A DNA stretch of 64,000 nucleotides from an uncultured delta proteobacterium (GCA_963713755.1 CAVQMW010000007.1:220465-284464), one strand, 5' to 3'. Shown: positions 19,287-40,724, counted from the first letter of the stretch. Notes: generated by a model not told the origin, from the sequence alone. Numbers and translations: made by a program.

Positions 19287-20593
19287 TTAGTGCATGATCC
19301 CCGGCAAAAAGAGCGCAATCTGAGGAAAGGCGGTCACCAGGATCACCACGACGATCACCGCCAGCAGGAACGGCAGAGCCCCTTTGAAGACCGTTTCCAT
19401 GGGCACATCCGCAACACCGGCAATCACGAAGATATTGAGCCCCAGGGGCGGAGTGATCAGCCCGGCTTCCATCATCAGCACCGAGATGACCCCAAACCAG
19501 ATGGGATTAAAACCCAACTCTAAAATTGTGGGAAAGATCACGGGTAGGGTCAGCACCATCATGGAGGTGGCATCCAGAAAACAGCCCAGGACCAGGTAGG
19601 CCACCAGCATGATGGATAAAATCAGGTAGGAGGAGAGATCCAAACCGCTCAGCCAGGCCGCCAGGCTCATGGGCAGCTGGGTCAGGGCCATGAAGTAGGT
19701 GAAGACATAGGCCCCGGATAGAATGACAAAGATCATCACCGAGACCCGGGTGGTGGCCATGAGGGCCTCCACCAGCGCCGGCCAGGTCAGTTTCCGTTTC
19801 CAAAGGGTCACCACGAAGAGGAAAAATGCGCCCAGGGCCCCGGCCTCGGTGGGCGTAAAAAACCCCAGATAGATCCCCCCCATCACCAACAGGAAGACGG
19901 CAATCAATTCCCAGGTATGAACCAGGGCCAGCAACTTTCGGCGAAATGTCACCCGCCGGGGAACCGACGGCGCTAGGGCGGGATTAAGCATCACCCACCC
20001 GATGATGATCAGCACATAACTACCCGCCAGCAGAAATCCGGGTAGAAAACCGGAGATCAGCAATTTGCCGATGGATTGCTCGGTCAGAATTCCGTACACC
20101 ACGAAGCCGATGCTCGGTGGAATCAAAAATCCCAGGGTGCCGCCGGCGGCCACACTGCCGGTGGCCAACTTTTCATCGTAGCCGTAGCGCGCCATTTCCG
20201 GCAGGGCCACCCGTCCCAAAGTGGCGGCGGTGGCCACGGATGAGCCGCAAATGGCGGCAAACCCGGAACAGGCGCCGATGGTGGCCACCCCTAGCCCCCC
20301 GGCAGCCGCCGCAGCCATTTGTCGGCCACATCGTAGATGCTCTGGCTCAACCCGGAAGCAGAGGCCAACTCCCCCATGAGCACGAACAAGGGGATGACGG
20401 TAAAGGAGTAAGTGGTAAAGGTGCCGAAAAAAGATCGCACCAGGGTAGGCATGGCAACCGAGACATCGGTCATCAGGCTGACCCCGCCAAACCCCACCAG
20501 GGCCAGGGCAAACCCAATGGGCATGCCAATAAATAGAAGCACAAACAGTACAGCGATCCCGGCGAGCCCCAAAATTTGAGGGTCCAGCGGCAT
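19287..20593 (-). pseudogene. dctM: TRAP transporter large permease (DctM), reading frame broken in a homopolymer
   Basis: ORFs 20291-20593 and 19287-20318 together give ..DKWLRRLPGG|LGVATIGACSGFAAICGSS.., the canonical DctM motif. That requires one more G in the minus-strand G6 run (plus-strand C run at 20295-20300). Confidence 0.8.
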
Positions 20594-20615
20594 AGGTGGA
20601 TCTCCTAGCCCATCA

Positions 20616-21152
20616 TCAGTAGATTGAACGTGAATTTCCGGTCAGCACGAGCTTAAGCGCGGAAATCAGCATGAGCAGCATTTCGAGTCCAATGAAGATA
20701 CTAGCCAAAGCGAGAAGAAAATAAATGGGGAACAGCGGCACTTTCAGCAGATCGGTGGTGGTGCCCGAAGCCATCTCCTCCAAGCCCATGGCCCAGCCTT
20801 GAGTTGCAAGCAGCGCAATGACCCCAATGCAGAGGCAATGGGTCACCACATCCAGCCCGGCGGCAAAACGTTTCGGCAAGGCGTTGACCAGCATGGTCAC
20901 CCGAATATTCGAACCGCTTTGGTGGGTATAAGCAAGTCCCAGAAGACCGAACACCGCCAGCATGATCTCCGTCAGCTCAATTCCGCCGGGAAGCGGTTTG
21001 GAGAAAAAAATGCGCCCGGCCACATCCAACGTGGTCAGCCCCATCATCACCATCACCCACCCCATGCCGATATAGAGGCTGCAGCGGGTGAGGAGGTGAA
21101 TCATCCGCTGAAATATATTTAGCTGATCCTTTGCCGAATCCACCATCTCCAC
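20616..21152 (-). CDS. dctQ: TRAP transporter small permease (DctQ)
   Basis: 178 aa, 4 TM helices, positioned between dctP and dctM. Confidence 0.8.
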   Translation of the reverse strand: MEMVDSAKDQLNIFQRMIHLLTRCSLYIGMGWVMVMMGLTTLDVAGRIFFSKPLPGGIELTEIMLAVFGLLGLAYTHQSGSNIRVTMLVNALPKRFAAGLDVVTHCLCIGVIALLATQGWAMGLEEMASGTTTDLLKVPLFPIYFLLALASIFIGLEMLLMLISALKLVLTGNSRSIY

Positions 21153-21283
21153 TCCCTAAAGCCGACTACAATCGCACGCCTGAAAAGGCTGTAGATCAGC
21201 GGCCGTTGGCGCCCAGCAGCGCACCCGCTGGATCGGAAACCGAAACATGGGCTTGCGACTTATCGCCGGCAGTAAAAAAGCCT

Positions 21284-21607
21284 AAAATCCCCCCCAACCC
21301 CCCTTTTTCAAAGGGGGGAGCAGGAACGATACTCCCCGACCCCGGTTTTCCAAATGGGAAGACCCATTCCCCCGGCTCCGGGTGCCAAAGGCAAAGCGCC
21401 CATCTTTCCGGAGGCAATCCCCCTAAGTTATGTCTGAACAAAAACCCTGTTCTCCCTCCCCCTGGATGGGGGAGGGCCGGGGTGGGGGTGAATGATATCA
21501 AGCTGTTCTATCCCCTCCGCGTACAAGCCGCCAGGGGAAGGGCGTTTTCGGTCGAGCATATAGTAGGGGCGGAAAGTTTTTCGCCCCTACCTGAGTCCAC
21601 TGCCGGT
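21284..21607. repeat. Composite intergenic repeat (family A copy 2, with a family C element nested at about 21450-21558)
   Basis: Collinear with 6189-6410 (AAAATCCCCCCCAACCCCCCTTTTTCAAAGGGGGG ... GGCAATCCCC ... GTAGGGGCGGAAAGTTTTTCGCCCCTAC). The insert TCTCCCTCCCCCTGGATGGGGGAGGGCCGGGGTGGGGGTGAATGATATCA matches 34541-34653. Confidence 0.85.
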
Positions 21608-21815
21608 TCCCCCTTTGCCGAAGGGAGTTAAGGGGATTTCTCCTTCACCTCCCCCTTTACCAAAGGGGGCTAGGGGGATTTCACCTTCCATTCCCCCTTT
21701 GTCAAAGGGGGCTTGGGGGATTTCACCTTCGACTCCCCCTTTTTCAAAGGGGGTTGGGGGGATTTCACCTTCGACTCCCCCTTTTTCAAAGGGGGTTGGG
21801 GGGATTTATTCTTTA
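21608..21815. repeat. Tandem array of five 42-bp hairpin units
   Basis: The unit is TCCCCCTTTnnCAAAGGGGGnTnGGGGGATTTCACCTTCnnc. Copies start at 21608, 21650, 21692, 21734 and 21776. Copies 3, 4 and 5 are nearly identical. Confidence 0.9.
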
Positions 21816-21867
21816 CCGCGACAGGTAATGAAAATGATCGCCCCGGGGTGCGGCATCCCCACCCGTA

Positions 21868-21890
21868 GGGATGGGTTTCCAACCCGCCCC
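21868..21890. repeat. GC hairpin repeat (family D, degenerate)
   Basis: GGGATGGGTTTCCAACCCGCCCC. Confidence 0.6.
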
Positions 21891-21928
21891 TCCCGAGAGA
21901 CAAAATGCCCTGAGTTCACCAAGGATGG

Positions 21929-22984
21929 TTAATAGGGGCAGGCCTCGAAGCTTACATCCAGCTTCTCCAATTCTTCCTTAAATGCCACCAGCGCCTCTTT
22001 GGCCGGCAATCCTTTTGCTTCCAGCTCTTCCGCCCAGGCGGCTACCATTTCTTTGAACTTCTCGTTCCAGCGCGCCTTTTCATCCGCGGGAAGCTCATAG
22101 ATTTCCATGGACCCCTTGAACTCCTCCATGATCTCCGCGTACCACTGCTCATGAAATATTCCGGCAATCTTGTAGGCATCGCGTCCCACCTCGGTTATGA
22201 TGGGCTTGAGATCCCCGGGAACCCGATCCCAAAACTTCTTGTTCACAAAGAGACCTTCGGCGACGCAGCCAAAAGAGATGGGCACCCCGTGCTTGGCGAC
22301 TTCATAGAGCTTGAAGGCCTTGATCAAAGCCGGGCAGGTCACCACCCCATCGATCACGCCGGTTTCCATGGAGAGATAAACTTCGCCTAAGGGCATAAAA
22401 ATGGGCGTCGCACCCAGTGCCTCAATGGCTTTGGTTTGCAGGCCTCCGGGACTGCGGATCTTCAACCCCTTTAAATCCTCCAGAGTCTTCACCGGTTTGG
22501 TGGTCCAGATGTGAGCCATGACACAATTGTTGATGTGCAGCACCTTCACATCTTCAAACTCCTGGTGCAGTACCCGGTCATACATGGCCATGCCCGCCTC
22601 GGCCCCTTTCCATTTCGCCGGACAGACAATGGGCACCGAAAGCACATCGCTCAGGGGAAAGCGACCCGGTGTCCAAGTCAGGGTCGCATAGCCCATATCG
22701 GACAGCCCTGTCTTGACAATATCGAAATGCTCCGGACCTTTTCCCAGGGCCCCCCCTGCAAACATGCTGTAGGTAATGCGCCCATTGCTGCGCGTTTTCA
22801 TCTCCTCCAGCATGGGAATCCAGAGGTTCTTCACATCCGCGCCGGCCGGCACGTGCCAGGTACTGAAGCGGATATTGACGGTATCATCGGCGGCCGCTAC
22901 CGGAGCCATGAAACCCATTGCAAATACCATGACGGCTATCGCCACTACCGCCAAGCCGATTCCCACCTGCGTTGCAGCTTTCAT
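21929..22984 (-). CDS. dctP: TRAP transporter substrate-binding protein (DctP family)
   Basis: Signal peptide followed by a DctP-like fold. I chose the start at MKAATQ, which has the RBS GAGGAGGG. Confidence 0.88.
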   Translation of the reverse strand: MKAATQVGIGLAVVAIAVMVFAMGFMAPVAAADDTVNIRFSTWHVPAGADVKNLWIPMLEEMKTRSNGRITYSMFAGGALGKGPEHFDIVKTGLSDMGYATLTWTPGRFPLSDVLSVPIVCPAKWKGAEAGMAMYDRVLHQEFEDVKVLHINNCVMAHIWTTKPVKTLEDLKGLKIRSPGGLQTKAIEALGATPIFMPLGEVYLSMETGVIDGVVTCPALIKAFKLYEVAKHGVPISFGCVAEGLFVNKKFWDRVPGDLKPIITEVGRDAYKIAGIFHEQWYAEIMEEFKGSMEIYELPADEKARWNEKFKEMVAAWAEELEAKGLPAKEALVAFKEELEKLDVSFEACPY

Positions 22985-23067
22985 AACACCCTCCTCGATT
23001 TTGAGTAATGATCCGTCCCCGTGGTGATTTTTCACGGGAAAACACAAGTATCATCCATAGCCTGATC

Positions 23068-23946
23068 TCAGTCAGGCCTCATCTCATGGACCGCCAGCAT
23101 GTCTTCCAGCCCTTCGGTGATGGTGACCAGACCGCCGGCGGCAACCAGCGACCCAAGCACCACGCCGCAGTGAGTCAGGGCATCGCTTTTATCCACGGCC
23201 CGGGCTACGGCCCGGGCAAACGCCCCAGGGGATAGGGCACCCACTCCCACCGTAACCGGCAATTGAGGGATGTCGCTATCCGGGTCCAGCAGATGGGCCG
23301 GAACTTGTCGGATGGCGGGATCAGGCACCCAACAGGCATTGGCAATGGCCGTTGCAGCCGCATCGGCATAGTTGGCGCGATGCGCCACGGCGGTTACCGC
23401 CGAAGCGATCCCGCGGGTAAAACTTCGCCCCCCAAGCCCGCTGGTGGTCACCCCCCAGCTCGAACTCCGGTCATCGAGCTCAAGGATATGGGTAACCTCC
23501 GGCCGGCGGATATTAGTTCGCACGCCGACACTTACGGTTTCCCCGGGAGCCAGGCGTATCGCCAGATCTCCTCCATTGTCCACAATCACCCGGGTCATGC
23601 CTCGCTCGACCAACCAATCAGCCACCCCATCGGCCAATGTTCCAGCCACGGCGGCCATAGGGGTAAGATCCGCATCGCCCATCGCCTGAGCAGCGGCAAT
23701 CATGGCCTGGGCGAGATCATCCGTGCCGCTCCATTCAATTTTCAATACCGGCCGGCACAAATCAGTCCGCAGGCGGGCAATCCGCTCCAGATAGTCGACT
23801 CCCCGCAAGGCCGCTCGCCGGGCAACATCGGTGCGCGGACCCTTTTGGTCAAACGCTTTGATGGAAAGCCCCATGGGACCGCATACCACGCGCACTGTCT
23901 CGCGGTCAGGCAGAATAGTAATCGGCTGTTGCCAAGAGATAGACAA
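23068..23946 (-). CDS. UPF0280 / ApbE-like superfamily protein
   Basis: 292 aa. MAAVAGTLADGVADWL and VIVDNGGDLAI resemble the ApbE-fold core. Assigned from memory of the UPF0280 family. Confidence 0.6.
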   Translation of the reverse strand: MSISWQQPITILPDRETVRVVCGPMGLSIKAFDQKGPRTDVARRAALRGVDYLERIARLRTDLCRPVLKIEWSGTDDLAQAMIAAAQAMGDADLTPMAAVAGTLADGVADWLVERGMTRVIVDNGGDLAIRLAPGETVSVGVRTNIRRPEVTHILELDDRSSSWGVTTSGLGGRSFTRGIASAVTAVAHRANYADAAATAIANACWVPDPAIRQVPAHLLDPDSDIPQLPVTVGVGALSPGAFARAVARAVDKSDALTHCGVVLGSLVAAGGLVTITEGLEDMLAVHEMRPD

Positions 23947-23966
23947 ATGGAACCACCCGGTAGCAG

Positions 23967-24668
23967 TTAATCCAATTGCGCCACTACAGCGATGCCCTTG
24001 GACTTCATCTCTTCGAGGGCTTTCAGCGTCGTGTCCGGGGCGACGCCTTTGCAGAGGGATTCCACCACGGTGACTTTATAGCCCGCGTTCAGGGCATCGA
24101 TAGCGGTTGCCTTGACGCAGTAGTCCGTAGCAATACCGTAGACGATCACCTCGCTGATCCCATTGCGCTTTAGCACTGTATCCATTTCAGTCTTGGCCCC
24201 ACCGTCATCCTGAAACCCGGAATAGCTGTCATACCGCTTGTCCTTGCCTTTTTTGACCACGGCCTGAAACAGATTGTTATCAACTAAAATCCGCGCATTG
24301 GTCGTGCCCTGAACGCAATGGGGCGGCCATAACACCTGGGTGCGGTCCTCGATCTGGATTGTCTCAAAAGGTTTCTTTTCGCTGTGGTTGGAGAAAAAGG
24401 AAACATGCTCGGCCGGATGCCAATCCTGGGTGGCAAAGATCAGATGCCCATTGGTGTGCAGGTTTTCGGTGACCTTTTGGACCTTTTCGACAAAGGCTTG
24501 ATCCGACTCGGGGACCGCCAAAGAACCATTCTTAAAAGTGGTGAAATCCCCCTGCATGTCCACCACGATCACCCCGACCTTGGATGTTTCTCCGCCAAAA
24601 CTGGCGGATAGCATCCCCCAAACAATGATCATCGCTACCGCTGAACTCATCACCCATAACGCTTTCAT
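23967..24668 (-). CDS. pncA: Nicotinamidase/pyrazinamidase (isochorismatase fold) with an N-terminal signal peptide
   Basis: VVDMQGDF (catalytic Asp), TQDWHPAEHVSF (metal His), KKG (Lys) and GIATDYCV (catalytic Cys). The leader is MKALWVMSSAVAMIIVWGMLSA. I chose the start with the GGAGAG RBS. Confidence 0.85.
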   Translation of the reverse strand: MKALWVMSSAVAMIIVWGMLSASFGGETSKVGVIVVDMQGDFTTFKNGSLAVPESDQAFVEKVQKVTENLHTNGHLIFATQDWHPAEHVSFFSNHSEKKPFETIQIEDRTQVLWPPHCVQGTTNARILVDNNLFQAVVKKGKDKRYDSYSGFQDDGGAKTEMDTVLKRNGISEVIVYGIATDYCVKATAIDALNAGYKVTVVESLCKGVAPDTTLKALEEMKSKGIAVVAQLD

Positions 24669-24713
24669 GACCATCTCTCCTTTCACTCAATTAAGGGTTG
24701 TAGGAAATTCAAT

Positions 24714-26021
24714 TTAATTTCCGGAAAGCAACTTTGGCAGCCATGTCGCCAACTGAGGAAAGAGTATCAGCAGAATGATATTGATATAAATGGCCACCAG
24801 ATAGGGCAGTGCTCCCTTGACAATGGTTCCGATGGGATAATCGGGCACCACGCTGCGCAAAACAAACAGGCTGAGGCCGAAGGGCGGCGTAATCGTGCTT
24901 TGTTCAGCGGCCATCACATACACGACACCCCACCAGATGGGATCGAACCCCAGACCGCCAACAATGGGCATCACAAACGGAAAGGTGAGAAAGAGCATGG
25001 ACCAGGAGTCGAAAAACATCCCCATGAAGAAGTACATCACAAAGAATCCCAGGAGGATCCCGTATTTTCCGATAGTCAGACCGAGCACCTGCTCCTTGAT
25101 TAAGGGGATCATGCCCGCCGAGTTGAATACATGGGAAATCAGAGTGCTCATGGCCATGATGAAGAGGGAAAACGAGGTGATTTTCACCGTGTCCAAAAGG
25201 CTGTCGGAGAATAATTTATAGGTCAGTTTACGGTATCCAAGGGTCAGCACAATACTCAAAAAAGCCCCCAGCCCGCCGGCCTCCGTGGGGGTCATCAAGC
25301 CGCCAAAAATGGCGCCCAACACGCCGATAATCATCAAGGCGAAAGGCAAAGCTTCCCACAAGGCCCGTCGCCGGTCGGCCCAGCTGTACTTGACAGGCGG
25401 CGGGGCCAGAGCCGGGTTGAGCTTGACCATCACCGTAATCGTCACCAGAAAGAGTGCCGTAAGGGTCAGGCCCGGGATCAGGCCCGCGGCGAGCAGATCT
25501 ACGATGGAGACCCCCTGCCAGGCGCCGTAAAGAATGAGTAGAATACTTGGTGGTATCAGGGGCGCCAAAACCGTTCCGGAAGCAATGGAGCCCAACGAAA
25601 AACTGGGGTTGTATTTGCGTTGCTCCATAACTGGAAATGCGATCTTACCGAAAGTGGCCGTCGCAGCTATGGTGGATCCGGACATGGCTCCAAAAACCGC
25701 ATTCCCGCATATGACTGAAACCCCCAAACCGCCGGGCAGGTGCCCCACCCACTTGTCGATGGCATTGAAGAGTCGCTCGTTGACGCCGGTGTTCCCCAGA
25801 ATGGAACCCATCAAGATAAAGAGCGGCATGGCTGTCAAGGTAAAGGAGTTCAATGAACCCCAAAGGGTGTAAGCGATCTGGTTGATGGGTTGATCCACGT
25901 ACCAGATCAAACCCACCACCGCTACAACACCTACCGACCAGGCAATTTCCAGCCCCAGCAACAGGAGCACCAGGAGGCCTGCGATCAGAGCCACGGCAAA
26001 AAGAGCATCGGCGCCCATCAA
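24714..26021 (-). CDS. dctM: TRAP transporter large permease (DctM)
   Basis: 435 aa, polytopic, with WVGHLPGGLGVSVICGNAVFGAMSGS. It overlaps the dctQ stop by 4 nt. Confidence 0.92.
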   Translation of the reverse strand: MMGADALFAVALIAGLLVLLLLGLEIAWSVGVVAVVGLIWYVDQPINQIAYTLWGSLNSFTLTAMPLFILMGSILGNTGVNERLFNAIDKWVGHLPGGLGVSVICGNAVFGAMSGSTIAATATFGKIAFPVMEQRKYNPSFSLGSIASGTVLAPLIPPSILLILYGAWQGVSIVDLLAAGLIPGLTLTALFLVTITVMVKLNPALAPPPVKYSWADRRRALWEALPFALMIIGVLGAIFGGLMTPTEAGGLGAFLSIVLTLGYRKLTYKLFSDSLLDTVKITSFSLFIMAMSTLISHVFNSAGMIPLIKEQVLGLTIGKYGILLGFFVMYFFMGMFFDSWSMLFLTFPFVMPIVGGLGFDPIWWGVVYVMAAEQSTITPPFGLSLFVLRSVVPDYPIGTIVKGALPYLVAIYINIILLILFPQLATWLPKLLSGN

Positions 26022-26533
26022 CCCGCCTCCTCGTCGTTGCCCGCGGCTTTACCCAAGGCTTTGATCAGCTCGATGAAAAGCTGAAAAACAAGCAGTATCG
26101 CGCCGATAATGATGACCATCTGAGGATAGGCAATGGGGGTGCGCAGCCAGCTTCCGCTACGGGTGCCAAACATCAGCGAAAAGGCAACAAGTTGATAACC
26201 AGCGATCACCGTAAACACGGCCAGAGCCAAGGCCAGTGACAAGGTAAAAACCCGCAGCCAGCCCCGCATCGAAGGCGATAGCTTATTGATCAAGAACTCC
26301 ACCCGCACATGGCTGCGTTCCTGCCAGGCGAAGGCCAGACCCATGATGGTTACGGTTACTAGTAAATACCCACCGAACTCCTCGGCAATGGAAAGCGGGT
26401 TGCGCAGAACGTAACGGGAGGTTACATCCACCAAAACCAATACCATCATGGCAAAGATCAGCCAGCCCTGAAGGTGACCGCTGAAGAATGTGATCAACTT
26501 TTCGATAAAGCGAAGTATCCGACCCATGGGCAA
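26018..26533 (-). CDS. dctQ: TRAP transporter small permease (DctQ)
   Basis: 171 aa, 4 TM helices. Confidence 0.85.
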   Translation of the reverse strand: MPMGRILRFIEKLITFFSGHLQGWLIFAMMVLVLVDVTSRYVLRNPLSIAEEFGGYLLVTVTIMGLAFAWQERSHVRVEFLINKLSPSMRGWLRVFTLSLALALAVFTVIAGYQLVAFSLMFGTRSGSWLRTPIAYPQMVIIIGAILLVFQLFIELIKALGKAAGNDEEAG

Positions 26534-26560
26534 TCACCCCAATGTCACACCAATTTTTTA

Positions 26561-27625
26561 TCACTGGCAGCTAAATCCACGATATTGTTCTACAGAGGCC
26601 TTGATGGCATCAAGAAGCTCCTTGCCGTCGTCGCCGGTCTTCTTCAGCCACTCCGCTTCTACGACTTTGCAATTTTCCAGCGCCTTGGCCTGATCGGGAT
26701 CCGGCAGGTTCACCCGCTTGACACCGGAAAGATCCACGGTATCGACACTCATCACGTACTCGGCGGTGGTGGAGTAATTTACCATGCGCTGAAGATCCCG
26801 GCCCACATCCATAACCACCTGCTGAAGATCCTCGGGAAGTTCATCAAAAGATTTCAGATTGAGCAGAGTCACCGCCGTCCAGGTGGGAGAAAGGGGGGTT
26901 AATACAAAATATTCGGAGACTTTGGCCAAACCGATGGAGTAGCCATAACCCAGGCTGGTCAGCACACCGTCAATGGTGCCTGCCATCATGGCCGGCGCCA
27001 GTTCGGAACCGGCAATGGTTACTGGGCTGGCCCCTAAGGCCTTGATTCCCAGGGTAGGAAGATAACCGCCCACGCGGATCTTCATCCCCTGCAGATCATC
27101 CAAGGATTTGATCTCTTTTTTGCTCCATACACCGTTGGCCGGGTCCCACTGGGTAATGAACCAGAACTTGAGATTGAGCTTCTTTAGCGTGCGGTCGTAG
27201 ATCTCCATCACTTTTGGATCTTCGTAGATGGCCAACTCTTCGGCTAACCCCTGAACCGGGTCTTCATCCACAATCCCCGGAATTTCGCCCCAGTTCCATA
27301 GGGGATAGGTTCCCGACTCCCAGGGCATGGCCACATCCGCGCTGTCGGCCTTGCCGGTAGCCACGGCCTGCAGTAACTGATCCGTAGGAAACATGCGGGG
27401 AATGATTTTCAGCTTGATGCGTCCCCCCGACCGCTCGTCCAGCATGCGCTGCATTTCGCCACAGGGGCGATAGACTTGAGCGGCTCGAAATTTAGGCCCC
27501 CAGATGTCATTCCAGGCAAATTTCAATTCGTAGACTTTGTCCGCGGCGACGGTTTGCACAGGAACTGCCATCAGCACTAAAGCCGCGAGCACCGCCAACC
27601 CCAACCGATTGCGTTTTCTTGTCAT
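26561..27625 (-). CDS. dctP: TRAP transporter substrate-binding protein (DctP family)
   Basis: 354 aa with a signal peptide (LAVLAALVLMAVPVQTVAA). KIRVGG and GVLTSLGYG are DctP-like. Confidence 0.88.
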   Translation of the reverse strand: MTRKRNRLGLAVLAALVLMAVPVQTVAADKVYELKFAWNDIWGPKFRAAQVYRPCGEMQRMLDERSGGRIKLKIIPRMFPTDQLLQAVATGKADSADVAMPWESGTYPLWNWGEIPGIVDEDPVQGLAEELAIYEDPKVMEIYDRTLKKLNLKFWFITQWDPANGVWSKKEIKSLDDLQGMKIRVGGYLPTLGIKALGASPVTIAGSELAPAMMAGTIDGVLTSLGYGYSIGLAKVSEYFVLTPLSPTWTAVTLLNLKSFDELPEDLQQVVMDVGRDLQRMVNYSTTAEYVMSVDTVDLSGVKRVNLPDPDQAKALENCKVVEAEWLKKTGDDGKELLDAIKASVEQYRGFSCQ

Positions 27626-27678
27626 TGTTTTCTCCTTTAAATCTTAGAAACTGTATTTACGAACGTCTGAACTTAGCC

Positions 27679-29124
27679 TTAGCCACTGCTGAGTTTTGAA
27701 TCCGCCGCCGCCACCAATTGATCCAATTCCGCGCACAGTTCCGCGGGAGCAGCCGCACTGTTCTCTTTTGCCATGAGGACACGGTAATCCTCCATCACCC
27801 TGTCCATGAGGTTTTTCCGCCCGCTTTTTTCATAATCATCACGGGTCGGCCGTGTGAAGTTGTGAGGTACAAATGCATCGCGACAATGTTCCAATGTGTG
27901 ATCCGCCAGCATGAAATGCATCCCAGGCTCGACAGAGGTGAGAGGTTGCCAGCCCATTTGATCGTCATCCAGACTGAAGGGCATCACCAGCCGCCGGGCC
28001 ATGGCCAGGACCTCATTATCGACAATGAGCTGCAAAGGGCTGACCACGGTGGCAACTTCCAGCTGACCGGCACCGCCGAGGATGTCTAGTCCTGAAGCGG
28101 CCATCCAGGTGGTCAGCATGGCCCGCTCACTCATGGATTGCATATCGGGAATGGGTGAATCGGTCCCGCTGCCGTAATTATGCGTCGGCAGCCCAAACTC
28201 CTGTTTCAGAAACTGGTCTGCCAAGGAGGCTCCCCGCATGGCCTCCACACTGGCCTGCAGACTACGACCGGTGGCCATGTCCGTGGAGAAGATAATGGGG
28301 CAGGCCACCACGGGTGCACCGGGCTGAACGGCCTGGGCCATGGCGACCAGGGCCAGAATTTCGGCGACTGCAAGCAGCACAGTTCCCAGCACGGTGGCGG
28401 GGGCTGTCCCGCCGGCCCCGGGCAGAGAACAGGCGTGGATGGGAATACCAGCTCGGGCCGCTTGAAGGATAACCTCCATGTCCATCTGTTTGAAGGCCCG
28501 GGGCGTCAGGGAGCAGGCAATCATGGAGATCAGCGGATTATCCGACAGCGCCTTTCGGCCTCCGGCCGCGGCAGCCGCCAGATCGATCAGCGCAGCTACG
28601 CTCTCGGCGCAATAGGGCTGGACCCAAAGATGCTTGTCGGTATGCTTAAACAGCGTAGCCAGCGCGTGGATATCCGCCGTAGCCACGGGGGCATCGTCGG
28701 GAAACAGATAGGGCATGAAGCTGATTTCATCCAGATGGTTGACCAGCCGGGCCCAATCCGCCAACCGAGCCAAGGTCACTTTTTCCAATTCAGCAGTCTC
28801 AGGATCGATCCAGCCATGCCCCCCGGTACAGGTGCGGGCGTAGAAGGTGCCATCCGGTCGCGGCAGAGGCAGGGCCCGCTCCGGATTCCGAGCACCCAAT
28901 GTAAAAGTGCGCGGTGCCCGTGCCAGCAATTCTTCGAGGGCTTTACGGGGAAAGCATACCCGCCCGCTGTTGCTGTCCAATTTCAGGCCGGACCGAACCA
29001 ACGTCTCCATAATTTCAGGGTGGTTATCCAGTTTGACGCCATGGTCGGCAAGCAGAGTGAAAACCCTGGTTTTTAATGTGGCCCGTTGACTCTCATCAAG
29101 ATAGGAAAATTTAGCCATACTCAT
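27679..29124 (-). CDS. MttB-superfamily (trimethylamine methyltransferase-like) protein, non-pyrrolysine type
   Basis: 481 aa, an uninterrupted ORF with no internal TAG. It has the family-typical length and a TIM-barrel-like pattern (..YARTCTGGHG.., ..MIACSLTP.., ..GIPIHACSLPGAGGTAP.., ..LDILGGAGQLE..). Confidence 0.8.
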   Translation of the reverse strand: MSMAKFSYLDESQRATLKTRVFTLLADHGVKLDNHPEIMETLVRSGLKLDSNSGRVCFPRKALEELLARAPRTFTLGARNPERALPLPRPDGTFYARTCTGGHGWIDPETAELEKVTLARLADWARLVNHLDEISFMPYLFPDDAPVATADIHALATLFKHTDKHLWVQPYCAESVAALIDLAAAAAGGRKALSDNPLISMIACSLTPRAFKQMDMEVILQAARAGIPIHACSLPGAGGTAPATVLGTVLLAVAEILALVAMAQAVQPGAPVVACPIIFSTDMATGRSLQASVEAMRGASLADQFLKQEFGLPTHNYGSGTDSPIPDMQSMSERAMLTTWMAASGLDILGGAGQLEVATVVSPLQLIVDNEVLAMARRLVMPFSLDDDQMGWQPLTSVEPGMHFMLADHTLEHCRDAFVPHNFTRPTRDDYEKSGRKNLMDRVMEDYRVLMAKENSAAAPAELCAELDQLVAAADSKLSSG

Positions 29125-29214
29125 GGAGAACCTCTTCTTCCCGGATTATTTAGACGTCTGAGCGTTCATGGGTCTTAAAGATCGAGCGCATTTCATATCG
29201 CTGGTTTAGATGAT

Positions 29215-30741: not shown

Positions 30742-30841
30742 AGGTTCGGATTCTCCACGCTAAAGTTTGCTGCTATTAAAATCTGACCAGTCCATAGTTC
30801 TTCTAACCCACTGAAATTATTAGGTTCGATTGGATAGCCTC

Positions 30842-30921
30842 GTCATTCCTGCGAAGGCGGGAATCCAGATAGATTCCAATACATTGGAATCTCTGGATGC
30901 CGGATCAAGTCCGGCATGACG
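30842..30921. repeat. MITE-like inverted-repeat element (family B, copy 3)
   Basis: GTCATTCCTGCGAAGGCGGGAATCCAG ... CTGGATGCCGGATCAAGTCCGGCATGAC. It sits between two genes of the catabolic block. Confidence 0.85.
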
Positions 30922-32147: not shown

Positions 32148-32179
32148 GCGTTCCTCCTATATGACGACCGAATATAAAT

Positions 32180-32216: not shown

Positions 32217-34502
32217 TTAGTCTGCTCTTGCCGGCCCAAAATGCCCGCCCTTGATACTCGCCTCGAGGACCCGTTCCAGATTGGCCGGCAAAGTATAGAT
32301 CCGCTCTCCCAGAGCGTCGGCAATGGCGTTGAGTATGGCCGGAGCCGTTGGAATCAGGGCCGGTTCGCCGACCCCTTTCGCGCCGAAGGGTCCGCTGGGT
32401 TCGGGGGATTCGATGATGATGGGCACGATTTCGGGCATATCCGCAATGGTGGGGATAGGGTAGTCCTTCATGGAAATCGTGCTCCCGGGGTGAAATTCTT
32501 CCATCAAACCAAAGCCGATGCCCATGGCCACCCCGCCGCAAATCTGCCCGATCACATTCCCGGGGTGGATGGCCCGGCCCACATCATGCGCGGCCACCAC
32601 CTTCTCCACCTTGACTTCACCGGTGAGTACATCGACGGCGACCCCAACCAGCTGGCAGGCAAATGCGTAGGTCGCGTAGGGCACGCCCTGGCCGGTTTCA
32701 AGGTCCAGGGGAACCGTGTCGGGGTCGAAATAACCGGGCCACTCCAGCCCCCCGCCTTTGGCCTGGATGCGCCGGGCCAGTTGGGAAAAGGAAACCCGTT
32801 TCTCGGGGTCCCTGTTTAGAACGACTTCTCCGTTGTCAAACACCAAGCTCCGCTTAGGCGCTCGCAAACGGTTGACTGCTTCAGTGAGCAACACATCTGA
32901 GAGTTTGGTACAGGCATCGTGTACGGCATTGCCGGAGATGTAAGTCTGGCGGCTGGCCGAGGTGGCGCCGGCATTGGTAGTCAACAGGGTATCCGCCGCC
33001 ACTAGCCGAATTTCATGGGCGGCGAGTCCCAAAACCTCACCGGCGATCTGGGTGAGCACCGTGGAGGAGCCCTGGCCGATGTCCGCACAGCCGCTGTAGA
33101 GGGTAACCCGGCCTTCAAGGTCCATCTCCACCCGGGCCGTGGAGGGGTTCTGCACGCCGGTGTTGCCGATGCCGTACCACATGGCAGCGATGCCCACCCC
33201 CCGCTTCACATAAGGCCCTGCATCTTTGACCTTTTCCCGAGCCAGGGCCCAATGGGGTTGGACCGCCCGCAGGCAATCCATGAATCCCACGCTGTCGGTG
33301 AGCTCCTGGCCCGTGGCGGTGACAGCGCCGACGTGAAGGGCATTGCGCAGGCGAATTTCCAGGGGATCGATATCGAGCGCCCGGGCGTGGAGATCGAGCT
33401 GGCTTTCATGAGCCACGGCGGCCTGGGGTGTGCCAAAGCCGCGCATGGCACCGCAATAGGGATTGTTGGTGTAGACACAGCGGCTTTCAATATCCACGTG
33501 GGGAATTTGATAAGGCCCCGTGATATGCACCGCCGCCCGGGAGGTTACCGCCAGGCCGTAAGAGGCGTAGGCGCCGGTGTCGCAAATGATTCTCGCCCGC
33601 AGCGCCCGCAAGCGCCCCTGAGCGTCGGTTCCGGTTTTAAGTTCAATCGTGAGGGGGTGCCGTTTGGCCGTGGCCAGATAGGCCTCTTCCCGGCTGTAAA
33701 CGTAGCGCACGGGACGCTTGAGATGGTAAAGGGCCAGCCCGATAAATCCCTGGACATTCATGTCCAGCTTGGAACCGAACCCGCCCCCGGTGGCGGCCTG
33801 AATGACGCGCACCCGATCATCGGCCAGACCCAGGAGGGTGACCACCTCTTTGTGGTCGTAATGGGGATTCTGGGTAGAGGCGTAAATCACCAGGGTGCCG
33901 TCGTCATCCACGAACCCCAGACCGGCATCGGGTTCCAGGTAGTTGTGCTCCACCATGCCGGTGCGGTAGGTTTTCTCTACCACGCTGGCGCATTGCGCCC
34001 ACTGACCCTCGGGATCACCGTGTTTGATTCGGCGCGTCACCAGGCAGTTGCCCTTAGGGTGAAGCGACGGGGCCTGGGGTTTTAGCGCTTCTTCGGGGTC
34101 GAACACCGCCGGCAGGGGCTCGTAGATAACTTCAATCGCTTTGAGGGCTGCTGCGGCGGCGGCTTCATTTTCGGCCGCCACCAGAGCCAGCGGTTCGCCT
34201 TTGCAGCGCACCTTGCCCGCAGCCAGCAAGGGTTGGTCCTTGTTGATAATCCCCAAGGCATTTTTGCCGGGAATATCATGGGCCGTGAAAACGGCGACCA
34301 CCCCGGGCAGCGCCGCGGCTGCCTGGGTGTCGATTTCGACCAGGGATGCGTGGGGGTGGGAACTGCGTAAGGCTTTCAGCACCAGGGGCGCATCGGCGCT
34401 CAGGTCCGCGCAGAAGATTGGCGCGCCCTTGAGCTTTTCCTGAGCGCCGAATCGCGGAATGCTGCGGCCGATGGATTTGAAACGAGATTCCATAGGATTC
34501 AT
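32217..34502 (-). CDS. Molybdopterin-binding large subunit of a xanthine-dehydrogenase-family hydroxylase (nicotinate dehydrogenase candidate)
   Basis: 761 aa. GGGFGSK, CGAMRGFG and FGAKGVGEP are typical of the XDH/aldehyde oxidase family. It is a single chain rather than split. Confidence 0.9.
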   Translation of the reverse strand: MNPMESRFKSIGRSIPRFGAQEKLKGAPIFCADLSADAPLVLKALRSSHPHASLVEIDTQAAAALPGVVAVFTAHDIPGKNALGIINKDQPLLAAGKVRCKGEPLALVAAENEAAAAAALKAIEVIYEPLPAVFDPEEALKPQAPSLHPKGNCLVTRRIKHGDPEGQWAQCASVVEKTYRTGMVEHNYLEPDAGLGFVDDDGTLVIYASTQNPHYDHKEVVTLLGLADDRVRVIQAATGGGFGSKLDMNVQGFIGLALYHLKRPVRYVYSREEAYLATAKRHPLTIELKTGTDAQGRLRALRARIICDTGAYASYGLAVTSRAAVHITGPYQIPHVDIESRCVYTNNPYCGAMRGFGTPQAAVAHESQLDLHARALDIDPLEIRLRNALHVGAVTATGQELTDSVGFMDCLRAVQPHWALAREKVKDAGPYVKRGVGIAAMWYGIGNTGVQNPSTARVEMDLEGRVTLYSGCADIGQGSSTVLTQIAGEVLGLAAHEIRLVAADTLLTTNAGATSASRQTYISGNAVHDACTKLSDVLLTEAVNRLRAPKRSLVFDNGEVVLNRDPEKRVSFSQLARRIQAKGGGLEWPGYFDPDTVPLDLETGQGVPYATYAFACQLVGVAVDVLTGEVKVEKVVAAHDVGRAIHPGNVIGQICGGVAMGIGFGLMEEFHPGSTISMKDYPIPTIADMPEIVPIIIESPEPSGPFGAKGVGEPALIPTAPAILNAIADALGERIYTLPANLERVLEASIKGGHFGPARAD

Positions 34503-34699: not shown

Positions 34700-35551
34700 T
34701 TAAGTCAGAGGCGCCATGAGGCGCATGAACAGTCCCTGGATGGCCGGTTCTTTGTACACCGTGGAGTGGCGGCGGCCGGTGATGGCGATCATGGTCTCCG
34801 CCATGATCCGGCCCGCCTCCCAAATCCGTTCCGCCGTGGGCCGCTGATCGAACAGAAACGCTTCCACTGCGGTCATACGATGGGGGGTCGGCGTACAGGA
34901 ACCTAAAGCCACGCGAATAAAATCTATCTTACCGTTTTCCTTCCGGCGGACCATGGCCGCCAGATTGAGCCGGGCAATCGCCAGCGCCCGTCGACGGCCG
35001 ATTTTTTGAAAATCCGCAAAGTCCGCTTGGGCCGGTTTGAGAATGAAGCGGGTGATCACTTCTCCAGGCGGCAGGGCACAGGCATAGGGCCCCGAGGCCA
35101 CGGAAGTAATGGGGATGCGGCGCAATCCTCCTTTGCCGGCGAGCTCCACATCAGCCTCATGGATAACCAGGGGCGGCAGAGTGTCCCCGCAAGGAGAACA
35201 GTGCGCCACGTTACCCCCAATCGTGGCCACATTTCGAATCTGGCGGCTGGCAAAGGTTTGGGCGCATTTGTTGAGGGATGGCGCGTGTTGCGCCAGAAGC
35301 TCGGAATTTTCGATCTCGCTGAGGGTGACCGCAGCGCCCACGGAAAGTTCTTCCCCGTTGAGTTCTAAAACCCTGAGTTCGGGGAGGCGGCTCACATCCA
35401 AAAGAACATCGGGAGTCCGTTCTCCGGACCGGAGATCCACCACCACATCGGTCCCACCGGCCAGAATTTGGGTGCTGCGGCCCTTTTCAGCCAGAACATC
35501 CAACGCCGCATTCAGAGAGTCAGGGCGAATGTAATCGAATTCAGCCGGCAT
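34700..35551 (-). CDS. FAD-binding subunit of the Mo-hydroxylase (CoxM/XdhB-like)
   Basis: 283 aa with the FAD_binding_5 pattern ILAGGTDVVVDL and ATIGGNVAH. Confidence 0.9.
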   Translation of the reverse strand: MPAEFDYIRPDSLNAALDVLAEKGRSTQILAGGTDVVVDLRSGERTPDVLLDVSRLPELRVLELNGEELSVGAAVTLSEIENSELLAQHAPSLNKCAQTFASRQIRNVATIGGNVAHCSPCGDTLPPLVIHEADVELAGKGGLRRIPITSVASGPYACALPPGEVITRFILKPAQADFADFQKIGRRRALAIARLNLAAMVRRKENGKIDFIRVALGSCTPTPHRMTAVEAFLFDQRPTAERIWEAGRIMAETMIAITGRRHSTVYKEPAIQGLFMRLMAPLT

Positions 35552-36035
35552 CGGTTGTTCCCTCCACCTTTTGGGCAGCAGCTTCCACGGATTCGAAGAT
35601 CTGCTGGTAGCCGGTACAGCGACACAAATTACCGGCCAACGCAGAACTTACCGCAGCCCGGTCCGGATAAGGATTTTCCCGTAAGAGGGCATCGGTGCTC
35701 ATCAACAAACCCGGTGTGCAAAACCCGCATTGCACGCCGTGCTGCTCTAAGAACGCCTCTTGGATCGGATGCAGCCCTTCCTCCGGAGCCAGCCCCTCCA
35801 CGGTGGTCACCTGGCGCCCATCCAGCTGAGCCGCCAACATCAGGCAGGAATTAACCGCCCGTCCGTCGACCTGGATAGTGCAGGCGCCGCATTCGCCGAT
35901 CCCACAGCCCTCCTTGGTGCCTTTGAGGCCCAATTCTTCTCTGAGCAGCTGCAACGCGGTCAGCGCGGCGGGAATTTCAAGGGATAGGGCTTTACCGTTG
36001 AGTATGATCTGGATGTTTACGCGAGGAGGATTCAT
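35541..36035 (-). CDS. [2Fe-2S]-binding small subunit of the Mo-hydroxylase (CoxS/XdhC-like)
   Basis: GCGIGECGACTV-type (CGIGECGACTIQVDG) and CGFCTPG motifs. The start is uncertain; I chose MNPPRV, but the ORF extends to 36089. Confidence 0.9.
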   Translation of the reverse strand: MNPPRVNIQIILNGKALSLEIPAALTALQLLREELGLKGTKEGCGIGECGACTIQVDGRAVNSCLMLAAQLDGRQVTTVEGLAPEEGLHPIQEAFLEQHGVQCGFCTPGLLMSTDALLRENPYPDRAAVSSALAGNLCRCTGYQQIFESVEAAAQKVEGTTDAG

Positions 36036-36096
36036 GGGCCGCTGCCTTCTGCCGATATGCATGTCACCGTTGAACGGTGTGGATTTCAAGTCCGGC

Positions 36097-36176: not shown

Positions 36177-36770
36177 CTATCGCAGCCCATCCTCACCTTT
36201 GGCATCTTCTTTCCTGAGCCCCCCGATTCGGGGCAACGGTCGTCCGGAATCGGTAACGGCTACAATCAGAACCAATTCATCGGCGCGGGGAGCATCGGGG
36301 ATCCGCACCTCCATGGCATCGAAGTGGGAACGCACAAAGGCGGCATCCTTATACCCCAGGGGGACATCCAGGGCAGCACCGGGGAAAGCCAGTTTTTTGG
36401 CTGAGGGGATGAGGGCCTTACCCCCGCCGACATTTCCCCGCATGGGCTTTCCCAGAGCCGGATGCATGATGGCCGCGCAGTGTTCCAACTCGCCATTTTC
36501 TCCCACCAGGGCGCCCTTGCCGTAACTCTCCACCTCCTCGGGAGCGATTCCCAGGGCGGCCACCGCTTTTTGGGTGAGGATTGCTCCCAATTCTTCGCTG
36601 ATCTCAATCAGCGAAGTAAGATCTTCCTGGTAGCTACCGGCGAATGGATTGGCAAACACCGCGGCAACCGCGGCTTTACGGGTGGCGGGCGATACATCCC
36701 GGGCGCCATCCCGGTGGGTTTCTTCCACAATGGTATAAAATTTTCGAATATGAAGTTGGGACTTGCTCAT
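36177..36770 (-). CDS. 'Amino acid synthesis' family protein (PF06684/DUF1185-like), function unknown
   Basis: About 197 aa. FANPFAG, GKGALVGENGELEHCAAIMH and GGGKALIPSAKK match my memory of this family. I chose the ATG with the GGAGAG RBS. Confidence 0.6.
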   Translation of the reverse strand: MSKSQLHIRKFYTIVEETHRDGARDVSPATRKAAVAAVFANPFAGSYQEDLTSLIEISEELGAILTQKAVAALGIAPEEVESYGKGALVGENGELEHCAAIMHPALGKPMRGNVGGGKALIPSAKKLAFPGAALDVPLGYKDAAFVRSHFDAMEVRIPDAPRADELVLIVAVTDSGRPLPRIGGLRKEDAKGEDGLR

Positions 36771-36803
36771 GGCGCTCTCCATCTCTGGTTCGGTCTTGCG
36801 GGC

Positions 36804-38291
36804 TTAGGCCCAGCGCTCGGTAACCGTCTTTTGATCCAAAAACAGGCGCATAGAATCGATGCGGGATTTGGCCAGCCCAAAGGCCGACTCATTCTTGGAG
36901 CCCAGGGGAAAGAAGGCAAAGGGCTGGGGCACGGGAACGTTGACTCCCACATTGCCCACATCGGCCTGCTTGATAAAGTTTCGGGCCACATGGCCGTCAC
37001 GGGTGAAGATGCAGCCCGAATGGCCGTAGTTGTCTTTTTCATTCATCCAGGCCAGGGCCTGGTCAAGGTCGTCGGCCCGCAGCAGATTGGCTACCGGTCC
37101 GAAGGACTCCTGGCGGGCAATGTGCATATCAGGATGGACTCCTTCGAAGATTGTCGCCCCCAAGAAAAATCCGTTTCTATAAGGCTCCGCCAATTTCGGC
37201 TGGCGGCCGTCCAAGATCATCCGTGCACCTTCATTGAGTCCCATCTCAATGAATTTGAGCACCTTGTTCTTACCTGCTTCGGTGACCAAGGGACCCATTT
37301 CCGTGGCTTCATCCAGTCCGTACCCAAGGGGCATGGCCGCCGAGGCGGCAACGAATTTCTCCTTGAACTCGTCATACGCATCACCGATCACCACGATGTT
37401 GTCGGCTCCCAGACAGCGCTGCCCGGCCATGCCGTAACAGCCCCGCAGCAAGCCGGCCACAGCCTTGTTCAGATCGGCATCGGGCATCAGCACCACATGG
37501 TTTTTGCCGTTACCGTTGACCGAGGCCTCCTTACCCAAGCGCCCGGCCTGGGCGAAGAGTTCCAGCCCCACGCTTGAGGAGCCGATAAACCCTACCCCTT
37601 TGATTGCGGGGTGCTCCAGAATCATCTGATTAATCTTGCGGCCACCGTAGATCAGATTGTTTAAGCCCGGCGGAAATCCTTTGACTTTGCTGACAGTCTC
37701 AAAAATGGCCTGGGCACAAATGGGATCAGCGGAGCTGGGGCTGACGATCACCGGACAACCGCTGGCCAGGGCGTAGGGCACATAGGAGGACCAGGCATGC
37801 ATGGGAATGTTGTTGGGCGTGATGATCAGAAAGACTCCCCGAGGCTCCCAGTAAAGGGTTTGATCCAAACCCATGGCCAGGTCGGGCACATATTCACCCT
37901 TGGTCATCAGCATCAGCGCCGAACAGGCCGATTCGATATTCTCAATACAGCGCCGCAGCGTCCCCCGGGCTTCACCGATGGTACGGCCATGATCCTGAAC
38001 CAGGATTCGGCAGAGCCGGTCATAGTCCAGCTCAAACTGTGCGCGCAAATCAAAGAGGCAGCGCGCCTTGTCCCGCAGAGAAACCTGCTTCCAGGCCGCA
38101 AGTGCCCCCTGGGCGGCTTCGATGGCCTCGGTAACCTCGCCCTCGCTGCTGACGGCAAAGGCGCCGATCTCTTTTCCGGTGGCCGGGTTCACTACTGCCT
38201 GGCTCAGAGGTTCAGAGGCGCTGCGCCACCTACCGTTGATGTACATCTTTAATTTGCCGTAATGACCCCGGACTTCTTCCAAAACTGCCAT
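36804..38291 (-). CDS. CoA-acylating (methyl)malonate-semialdehyde dehydrogenase-family aldehyde dehydrogenase
   Basis: 495 aa. The catalytic Cys lies in AGQRCLG. The family-specific C-terminus is PVPQPFAFFPLGSKNESAFG (compare MmsA/IolA PAPMAFFPFSGWKNSFYG). The Rossmann motif is GFIGSSSVG. Confidence 0.85.
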   Translation of the reverse strand: MAVLEEVRGHYGKLKMYINGRWRSASEPLSQAVVNPATGKEIGAFAVSSEGEVTEAIEAAQGALAAWKQVSLRDKARCLFDLRAQFELDYDRLCRILVQDHGRTIGEARGTLRRCIENIESACSALMLMTKGEYVPDLAMGLDQTLYWEPRGVFLIITPNNIPMHAWSSYVPYALASGCPVIVSPSSADPICAQAIFETVSKVKGFPPGLNNLIYGGRKINQMILEHPAIKGVGFIGSSSVGLELFAQAGRLGKEASVNGNGKNHVVLMPDADLNKAVAGLLRGCYGMAGQRCLGADNIVVIGDAYDEFKEKFVAASAAMPLGYGLDEATEMGPLVTEAGKNKVLKFIEMGLNEGARMILDGRQPKLAEPYRNGFFLGATIFEGVHPDMHIARQESFGPVANLLRADDLDQALAWMNEKDNYGHSGCIFTRDGHVARNFIKQADVGNVGVNVPVPQPFAFFPLGSKNESAFGLAKSRIDSMRLFLDQKTVTERWA

Positions 38292-40411: not shown

Positions 40412-40724
40412 GAAGCTCCTCGTTCGCTGCCGCGGGTATCTCTGCAATCCTCTTCGGGCAGCAGGTTCAATTTAATGGAATTGTCGCTGAATGCTTTGGC
40501 ATGCTGACATTTTCGCTGAGGAAAATCAACCAAGCAATGCCCCTTGCGGCAAGGGATAAATCCAGTAACGGGTCAGGCTCGCCGCCGACAGTTGCCGGCC
40601 TGCCGGGTTCATTGACCCATGCCGGATGGATGGCGAATCCACCGGTTTATATCCCTTGACTTTGGGACTGAAAATCCTTAAATCGCTAGAGCAAATTACT
40701 TAACAACAAAAAAGGAGATCGGAT

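Follow-up and report, generated by a model that had tools for sequence, protein, structure and literature searches.

What would a methyltransferase of the MttB superfamily do among genes of nicotinate catabolism? The question is raised by a 64,000-nucleotide stretch of DNA from an uncultured delta proteobacterium (GCA_963713755.1, CAVQMW010000007.1:220465-284464; the whole stretch is called the window below), in which a gene for such a protein lies between a gene for an Fe-S reductase-like protein and the genes of an importer of the tripartite ATP-independent periplasmic (TRAP) type. An earlier note on this DNA had suggested that the protein demethylates trigonelline (N-methylnicotinate) and thereby supplies nicotinate to the neighboring enzymes. 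On the basis of comparative genomics, we consider it probable that the MttB-family protein is the methyltransferase (MT1) that starts a corrinoid-dependent demethylation of trigonelline yielding nicotinate; we infer both the substrate and the direction of the reaction.

A full-length MttB-family protein without pyrrolysine

The open reading frame (ORF) of the mttB homolog encodes 481 amino acids from an ATG start to a TAA stop and contains no in-frame TAG codon; the closest in-frame stop 5' of the ATG is 24 nt upstream. The Pfam profile MTTB (PF06253) matched the protein with 212.8 bits (cutoff, 25) over profile positions 29 to 493 of 500, and the protein is therefore full length. Both the reading frame and the Pfam coverage agree with the earlier note, which had described a full-length 481-residue member of the superfamily lacking an internal TAG. 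A truncated gene, or one that depends on read-through at a pyrrolysine (Pyl) codon, was ruled out by the full-length match and the lack of an in-frame TAG. The codon aligned with that for Pyl334 of Methanosarcina barkeri MttB is GGG (Gly320), and Gly was found at this position in all 26 sequences of the clade. The NCBIfam equivalog model of the Pyl-dependent trimethylamine enzyme, TIGR02369, gave the window protein 258.2 bits, below its cutoff of 525.

An AlphaFold2 model of the protein (pLDDT, 85; pTM, 0.87) showed the TIM barrel that MtgB and MttB share, including their helical extension at the C terminus. In Foldseek comparisons, the model aligned with the glycine betaine methyltransferase MtgB (9YCE and 2QNE) with TM-scores of 0.89 to 0.90 at 25 to 26% identity and with the trimethylamine methyltransferase MttB (7XCL) with TM-scores of 0.87 to 0.90 at 22 to 23% identity. 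Sequence scores against the window protein were about 142 bits for MtgB and about 135 bits for MttB, and both were outscored by at least 150 proteins that represent other clusters at 50% identity. The earlier note had named membership in a clade of known specificity as a danger to its proposal; at 22 to 26% identity to MtgB and MttB, and with the MtgB contacts replaced as described below, the protein was not found in such a clade.

All four glycine betaine contacts are replaced across the clade

A study of the MtgB active site published in 2026 combined mutagenesis with a ligand-bound structure and found four residues to be essential, namely Y97 and F356, which make cation-pi contacts, and R312 and H348, which contact the carboxylate; the equivalent of R312 was stated to be conserved in MtcB, MtpB, MthB, and MtyB (PMC13080624). 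In our alignment, all four contacts are replaced in the window protein, where Y97/R312/H348/F356 correspond to T100/H315/G350/A358. This T/H/G/A signature was identical in the 26 Desulfobacterota-clade sequences and was shared by essentially all of 57 remoter relatives. We rejected specificity for glycine betaine for the window protein on the evidence of the replaced motif. His315 is invariant across the clade, which would also set the clade apart from MtcB, MtpB, MthB, and MtyB, which carry Arg at this position according to the statement in that paper.

As a control, we used second MttB paralogs encoded in two of the related loci (L018 and L019), which retain Y/R/H/Y at the four positions and have Leu at the Pyl position. 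These paralogs belong to Desulfotignum metagenome-assembled genomes, where they lie at 6216-7616 in L018 and 6444-7859 in L019, 3.5 kb upstream of the candidate trigonelline gene. They are 26% identical to the window protein, possess the complete MtgB glycine betaine motif, and look like true MtgB.

The replacements by Gly and Ala would open the pocket, as might be expected for a flat aromatic ligand. A methyl group is donated more readily by an N-methylpyridinium than by a tetraalkylammonium, since pyridine leaves more easily.

Linkage to nicotinate genes and corrinoid proteins in Desulfobacterota

The window contains together the three enzymes that mark a nicotinate cluster of the Eubacterium barkeri type, namely an enamidase (Ena), a nicotinate dehydrogenase (Ndh), and a 6-hydroxynicotinate reductase (Hnr), the last of these assigned by the names of its homologs. 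The best PDB matches of the molybdenum (Mo) subunit were chains A and B of E. barkeri nicotinate dehydrogenase (3HRD; E values, 4e-116 and 6e-76). Homologs of the 508-residue Fe-S protein at 71 to 74% identity bear the name 6-hydroxynicotinate reductase in NCBI and JGI, and its assignment rests on those names; in related loci its gene adjoins that of the enamidase. The nicotinate island recognized in the earlier note is thus borne out by the enamidase ortholog, the 3HRD-like Mo subunit, a nicotinamidase, and the names of the Hnr-like homologs.

More than 120 proteins in the protein collection were 58 to 79% identical to the MttB-family protein, and the named ones came from Desulfobacterales, Desulfatirhabdiaceae, and Desulfococcaceae. 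Loci were gathered from a scan of one genome per species (the best 80 loci) and from contigs encoding individual homologs; flanks were compared with the window proteins by tblastn, with a neighborhood defined as 10 kb. This yielded 31 distinct Desulfobacterota loci at 47 to 79% identity, several of them on short contigs, from Desulfobacteraceae, Desulfococcaceae, Desulfatirhabdiaceae, Desulfotignum, Desulfomonilaceae, Desulfarculaceae, Desulfohalobiaceae, and others. Orthologs (52 to 85% identity) of the Hnr-like protein, the enamidase, or the Ndh-like Mo subunit were encoded in the neighborhood in 11 of the 31 loci, in several families. Genes for enamidase and Hnr occur in at most about one copy per genome; their presence this close to mttB in one-third of the loci, spread over several families, is not a product of chance. 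At least one partner was present in all 14 loci counted with full 10-kb flanks, and the six loci with no partner were mostly on short or cut contigs.

The proteins expected of a corrinoid-dependent system recurred in the same loci. A corrinoid protein of 208 residues with a DxHxxG motif was encoded near mttB orthologs (56 to 67% identity) in 11 of the 31 loci, and a pterin-binding methyl-corrinoid:tetrahydrofolate methyltransferase (MT2; Pterin_bind domain) in 6 of the 31. A RamA-type activase (Fer2/Raco_middle/RACo_C_ter) was found together with DUF1638 in a single locus, L089. Nicotinate genes and the corrinoid protein occurred together in two loci. In one of them, L087, a single strand carries the genes for the FAD subunit, the Mo subunit, enamidase, Hnr, an ApbE-like protein, a DctPQM importer of the DctP2 type, MttB, the corrinoid protein, a DctPQM importer of the DctP1 type, RidA, and MT2, in this order; the other, L021, combines nicotinate genes with MttB, the corrinoid protein, and DctP1QM. 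In L087, the gene for MttB occupies 10001-11443, that for the corrinoid protein 11469-12095, and that for MT2 15618-16415. The order Ena-Hnr-MttB-DctPQ is repeated in L085, which encodes the nearest relative of the window protein (79% identity).

An adjacent TRAP importer as the candidate route of entry

In the window, the gene belongs to a single codirectional block on the minus strand, which reads OYE, GntR, aldehyde dehydrogenase, PF06684, [2Fe-2S] subunit, FAD subunit, Mo subunit, amidohydrolase, Fe-S protein, MttB, DctPQM (hereafter DctP1QM), isochorismatase family, ApbE-like, and a second DctPQM. The gap from the Fe-S gene to mttB measures 90 nt, that from mttB to dctP 53 nt, and that from dctP to dctQ 27 nt, and dctQ and dctM overlap by 4 nt; these values fit the earlier description of the gene as placed between the Fe-S reductase-like gene and dctPQM, all codirectional with gaps under 100 nt. 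A promoter and terminator scan of positions 19000 to 38500 gave counts near the shuffled expectation, with terminator-like sites about 2 standard deviations above it. From hnr through mttB to dctP, no convincing terminator was seen on the minus strand. Cotranscription of the three genes would fit this result but is not proven by it.

The adjacent system has the three components of a TRAP importer and the conserved Arg in its P subunit. DctP1 Arg184 aligned with an Arg in two TRAP binding proteins of solved structure (4N6D and 2PFY), which we take to be the carboxylate-binding Arg of TRAP receptors, and it was kept in 11 of 13 DctP1 orthologs. A search of the PDB with DctP1 (best E value, 6e-19) returned relatives too distant to hint at the ligand. 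At least 12 loci had a DctP1 ortholog (69 to 87% identity) encoded beside mttB, and some of these loci lack nicotinate genes.

A second, DctP2-type system in the window is a candidate importer for the nicotinate side; in L087, the DctP2 ortholog (66% identity) adjoins the ApbE-like and Hnr-like genes. The DctM2 ORF (19287-20318) is missing its first approximately 85 residues, and a DctM-like N terminus that ends in a stop is present in another frame (about 20330-20600); this frameshift is either a pseudogene or an assembly error. The gap between dctP2 and dctQ2 (21153-21928) is unusually long at 776 nt, and a strong terminator-like hairpin of the plus strand lies at 21749-21779.

Proposed pathway

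Trigonelline would be taken up through DctP1QM, and the MttB homolog would load its N-methyl group onto a small corrinoid protein in the Co(I) state, with release of nicotinate. The pterin-binding MT2 would then hand the methyl group to tetrahydrofolate (THF) for oxidation, and a RamA-type activase would reactivate corrinoid that has become oxidized to Co(II). The nicotinate would be converted to 6-hydroxynicotinate by the Mo-dependent nicotinate dehydrogenase, to tetrahydro-6-oxonicotinate by the Hnr-like reductase, and to 2-formylglutarate by the enamidase. A protein of family PF06684 and an aldehyde dehydrogenase resembling methylmalonate-semialdehyde dehydrogenase (MMSDH) would process 2-formylglutarate, possibly to glutaryl-CoA.

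Observations that weigh against trigonelline demethylation

Several observations weigh against this proposal. First, a nicotinate gene within reach was absent in 20 of the 31 loci, several of these being short contigs. Second, six loci of the same clade (L001, L002, L012, L014, L020, and L091) share another recurrent context. In L012 (9364-21431), L020, L001, and L014, a gene for a regulator with cupin and helix-turn-helix domains is followed by those for MttB, the corrinoid protein, an ATP-binding cassette (branched-chain type) or TRAP transporter, a Mo enzyme, and MT2, and in L002 and L091 a coenzyme A (CoA) ligase gene directly precedes that of MttB. The Mo enzyme of this context has three subunits; it shares only 28 to 29% identity with the Ndh-like subunit, and among solved structures it comes closest to 4-hydroxybenzoyl-CoA reductase. 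The second context may represent a CoA-dependent route for nicotinate or the use of another substrate, such as homarine; members of the clade may differ in their substrate or, failing that, in the route downstream of it. Third, Arg184 is lost in two DctP1 orthologs, being Phe in L011 (12186-13250; 75% identity) and Ser in L008 (11734-12762; 69% identity). Fourth, Pfam scans of 50 window ORFs detected no B12-binding, Pterin_bind, or RamA domain, and a six-frame hidden Markov model search of the window with models of the corrinoid protein and MT2 produced nothing above noise (best E value, 0.16; positive controls, 1e-94 and 1e-168). The earlier note had itself cautioned that neither a corrinoid protein nor MT2 nor a RamA-type activase is recognizable in the window, and the scans concur. 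A corrinoid protein on the window's own contig was also absent among the best 120 matches to the L001 query, in a family that is very large.

With regard to the corrinoid partners, the pairing of nicotinate genes with a corrinoid protein in L087 and L021 answers this caution at the level of the clade, and we infer that the genome encodes a corrinoid protein, MT2, and an activase outside the window. Five other loci (L003, L016, L018, L019, and L023) are likewise without corrinoid partners within 10 kb. In Ruegeria pomeroyi, the genes for MtgB, MtgC, and MtgD lie at separate places in the genome, and as many as seven MttB paralogs have these partners in common (PMC12478193). Given such scattered genes and the partner-less loci of the clade, the arrangement in the window is not unusual.

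With regard to the two contexts, nicotinate-type and corrinoid-type loci were interleaved in a neighbor-joining tree, and the residues at the MtgB-contact and Pyl positions differed little or not at all between the two. Together these results speak for a single function that travels on a mobile module. In L090 (2390-8628), a unit comprising a cupin regulator, MttB, DctPQM, and RidA is flanked by transposases and preceded by several transposase or integrase genes, a setting that suggests movement of the module between genomes.

We also looked at 57 relatives at 42 to 48% identity (L027 to L083), which come from Rhodobacterales, Hyphomicrobiales, Kiloniellales, SAR324, and others, are mostly aerobic and marine, and share the T/H/G/A residues. 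Only four (L064, L070, L078, and L081) lie near nicotinate-type genes (Hnr-like, enamidase, or PF06684), and a corrinoid protein adjoins several of the relatives. Clustering of the neighbors of these 57 alpha- and gammaproteobacterial relatives gave no family present in more than 8 loci and no functional lead; the shared families were mostly housekeeping (TrpA, YchF, L25, and FMN dehydrogenase). These relatives may use the same class of substrate aerobically.

Alternative explanations

The same mechanism might serve another cationic N-methyl heteroaromatic, whether homarine (N-methylpicolinate), 1-methylnicotinamide (by way of the adjacent nicotinamidase), or N-methylpyridinium carboxylates more broadly, and we regard this as unlikely while still taking it seriously. 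Homarine and trigonelline are isomers and are both common marine metabolites (PMC13236597), and part of the clade is coupled to the different Mo hydroxylase and to CoA ligases instead of to Ena and Hnr. On the other hand, the most frequent catabolic neighbors are enamidase and the Hnr-like reductase, which are specific to the 6-hydroxynicotinate route, and the conservation, complete or nearly so, of the MtgB-contact and Pyl positions extends over both types of context. For 1-methylnicotinamide one may point to pncA, the nicotinamidase gene, which begins 27 nt downstream of dctM1; however, PncA is not conserved in related loci, being absent from all others of the clade, and retention of the carboxylate-binding Arg in DctP1 speaks against an amide as the ligand.

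We think it very improbable that the protein is an ordinary methyltransferase for quaternary amines (of the glycine betaine, proline betaine, or carnitine type) whose nicotinate neighbors are due to chance or to coregulation with osmolyte use. Precedent lies on the side of such an enzyme, in that the characterized non-Pyl MttB homologs all act on aliphatic quaternary amines (PMC13080624, PMC8604678, PMC12155760), as does the lack of nicotinate genes in some loci of the clade. Against it stand the loss of every glycine betaine contact, including R312, the existence of paralogs with the MtgB motif as separate genes in L018 and L019, and the linkage to rare nicotinate genes, which at 11 of 31 loci is far beyond chance.

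That the protein is no catabolic demethylase at all, and instead catalyzes the reverse reaction (from nicotinate and methyl-THF to trigonelline as a compatible solute) or is a TIM-barrel enzyme of another nicotinate step, would agree with the want of corrinoid partners in the window. It would also agree with L016, where genes for aldehyde dehydrogenase and GntR enclose that of MttB and the 10-kb flanks encode neither a transporter nor a corrinoid protein. We give this reading hardly any credence, given that related loci pair the gene with an importer as well as with a corrinoid protein, MT2, and RamA-type activase, that the surrounding island is catabolic and has GntR or cupin regulators, and that the E. 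barkeri-type nicotinate pathway, as set out by Alhapel et al. in 2006, reportedly needs no MttB-like step.

Other genes of the nicotinate island

The features of the locus are collected in Table 1. The PF06684 protein was found with enamidase and aldehyde dehydrogenase in five related loci (L016, L021, L023, L070, and L081), and orthologs of the aldehyde dehydrogenase occurred in L016, L021, and L023. The aldehyde dehydrogenase scored 350 bits against TIGR01722, below the cutoff, and probably acts on 2-formylglutarate or its product. Since 2-formylglutarate is a 2-substituted malonate semialdehyde, its direct conversion to glutaryl-CoA is a plausible, previously undescribed downstream step. 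PncA would feed nicotinamide into the same pathway as a second entry. The ApbE-like orthologs adjoin Hnr-like genes in L016, L018, L019, L021, L025, L070, and L087 (as PF27030, AbpE_bact, in L087), and the protein probably serves the Hnr-like reductase in flavin transfer or maturation.

The G+C content per gene dips modestly over dctPQM and pncA (0.53 to 0.55, versus about 0.60). A recent insertion of these genes was considered from this dip and was not adopted, as such a dip is typical for membrane proteins. Elsewhere in the window, a nickel superoxide dismutase gene was found on the minus strand at 11438-11905 (Pfam Sod_Ni; E value, 3.6e-32); the genome apparently belongs to the Desulfobacterales.

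Table 1. Genes of the nicotinate island and its importers, by position in the window
Feature	Position	Strand	Evidence
MttB-superfamily methyltransferase, non-pyrrolysine, 481 aa; candidate trigonelline:corrinoid methyltransferase (MT1)	27679..29124	-	Pfam MTTB; AlphaFold2 fold match
TRAP solute-binding protein DctP1, candidate trigonelline receptor	26561..27625	-	Pfam DctP; signal-like N terminus
TRAP small membrane subunit DctQ1	26018..26533	-	Pfam DctQ; orthologs accompany DctP1
TRAP large membrane subunit DctM1	24714..26021	-	Pfam DctM, 293 bits; orthologs at 71-83% identity in related loci
Hnr-like (6-hydroxynicotinate-reductase-like) Fe-S protein, 508 aa	29215..30741	-	Pfam, N-terminal 2x[4Fe-4S] domain only
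Enamidase (1,4,5,6-tetrahydro-6-oxonicotinate hydrolase), 386 aa	30987..32147	-	End-to-end match to E. barkeri 2VUN, E value 2.5e-145
Nicotinate dehydrogenase-like molybdopterin subunit, NdhL and NdhM fused	32217..34502	-	Best PDB matches 3HRD
FAD-binding subunit of Mo hydroxylase	34700..35551	-	Pfam FAD_binding_5, CO_deh_flav_C
[2Fe-2S] subunit of Mo hydroxylase	35541..36089	-	Pfam Fer2_2, Fer2
PF06684 (AA_synth) protein, conserved nicotinate-cluster member	36177..36782	-	Pfam, 241 bits
Aldehyde dehydrogenase	36804..38291	-	Pfam Aldedh; closest to CoA-acylating MMSDH
GntR/FCD regulator of the island	38375..39085	-	Pfam; orthologs adjoin MttB in L016, L021, L023-L025
OYE	39290..40447	-	
Nicotinamidase PncA (isochorismatase family)	23967..24686	-	NCBIfam NF008623, 180.5 bits (cutoff, 174)
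ApbE-like (PRK04334) protein	23068..23946	-	NCBIfam NF003322, E value 1e-55, 188.7 bits (below cutoff of 290)
Second TRAP system: DctP2 21929-23047, DctQ2 20616-21152, DctM2 19287-20318	19287..23047	-	Pfam

Comparison with known systems

MtgB of Desulfitobacterium hafniense shares the Pfam family and TIM-barrel fold of the window protein and also lacks pyrrolysine, and in related loci the window-type protein occurs, as in the MtgB system, alongside a corrinoid protein of the DxHxxG type, an MT2 that binds pterin, and an activase of the RamA type; the window protein differs in that it adjoins nicotinate-catabolic genes and a TRAP importer and not glycine betaine genes. With the Pyl-containing MttB of M. 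barkeri it has the superfamily and fold in common, whereas Gly320 takes the place of Pyl334. The enzymes of Eubacterium limosum (MtpB, MtcB, MtyB, and MthB for proline betaine, carnitine, gamma-butyrobetaine, and choline, respectively) are non-Pyl MT1 proteins too and pass the methyl group through a corrinoid protein to THF (PMC8604678, PMC12155760). Compared by description, they differ from the clade of the window protein in their aliphatic quaternary amine substrates and in having, according to the MtgB paper, an equivalent of R312 where this clade has His; no E. limosum locus was present among the 80 best genome matches.

The MtgBCD system of R. pomeroyi offers a parallel in gene arrangement, with MT1 genes apart from the shared MtgC (corrinoid) and MtgD (pterin binding) and several paralogs of orphan substrate per genome, but it was shown for glycine betaine and in aerobes (PMC12478193). 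Rhodobacterales are among the groups that hold the relatives at 42 to 48% identity with the T/H/G/A signature. The aerobic routes for trigonelline (TgnAB of Acinetobacter) and homarine (HomAB) deal with the same class of substrate, N-methylpyridine carboxylates. They open the still-methylated ring in a flavin- and oxygen-dependent reaction and remove the methyl group later (PMC13236597), whereas here the methyl group would be removed first and without oxygen.

Nicotinate catabolism of the E. barkeri and Azorhizobium type has counterparts of its Ndh, Hnr, and Ena in the window. Downstream, the island differs in having the PF06684 protein and the MMSDH-like aldehyde dehydrogenase, in contrast to the B12-dependent mutase route of the E. 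barkeri type. To our knowledge, the characterized nicotinate clusters contain no MttB-family gene. In the literature that we searched, which was incomplete in that subscription journals could hold such a report, no paper contained both "MttB" and "nicotinate" and no such enzyme was described. Papers in this search that paired "trigonelline" with "MttB" or "corrinoid" mentioned trigonelline only in passing, and the bacterial routes for trigonelline and homarine found there were all aerobic, with no fate given for anoxic sediments, wetlands, or guts. In a multi-omics study of a wetland, trigonelline was explicitly singled out as an aromatic methylamine that might feed methylotrophy, a use not known so far (PMC10805028).

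The substrate indicated here (an aromatic N-methylpyridinium carboxylate) and the pathway context (nicotinate fermentation) are likely to be new for MttB-superfamily systems. We lean, by somewhat more than an even chance, toward regarding this as the first MttB-family clade to act on an aromatic N-methylpyridinium, in an oxygen-independent route with demethylation first that would join methylotrophy to nicotinate fermentation in marine and sediment Desulfobacterota.

Implications for trigonelline turnover and the MttB superfamily

Trigonelline is a major metabolite of plants, algae, and invertebrates. If the MttB-family protein does demethylate it, the substrate range of the superfamily would widen to heteroaromatic cations, and one of its many orphan paralogs would be explained. 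The gene would then serve as a marker for anaerobic trigonelline demethylation in metagenomes, and the reaction would form a cobalamin-dependent link between the turnover of an osmolyte and the supply of vitamin B3 (nicotinate). In the same case, a cobalamin-dependent sink for osmolytes of the trigonelline type would appear to be widespread, as judged by the relatives with the T/H/G/A signature among Rhodobacterales and further aerobic bacteria of the sea.

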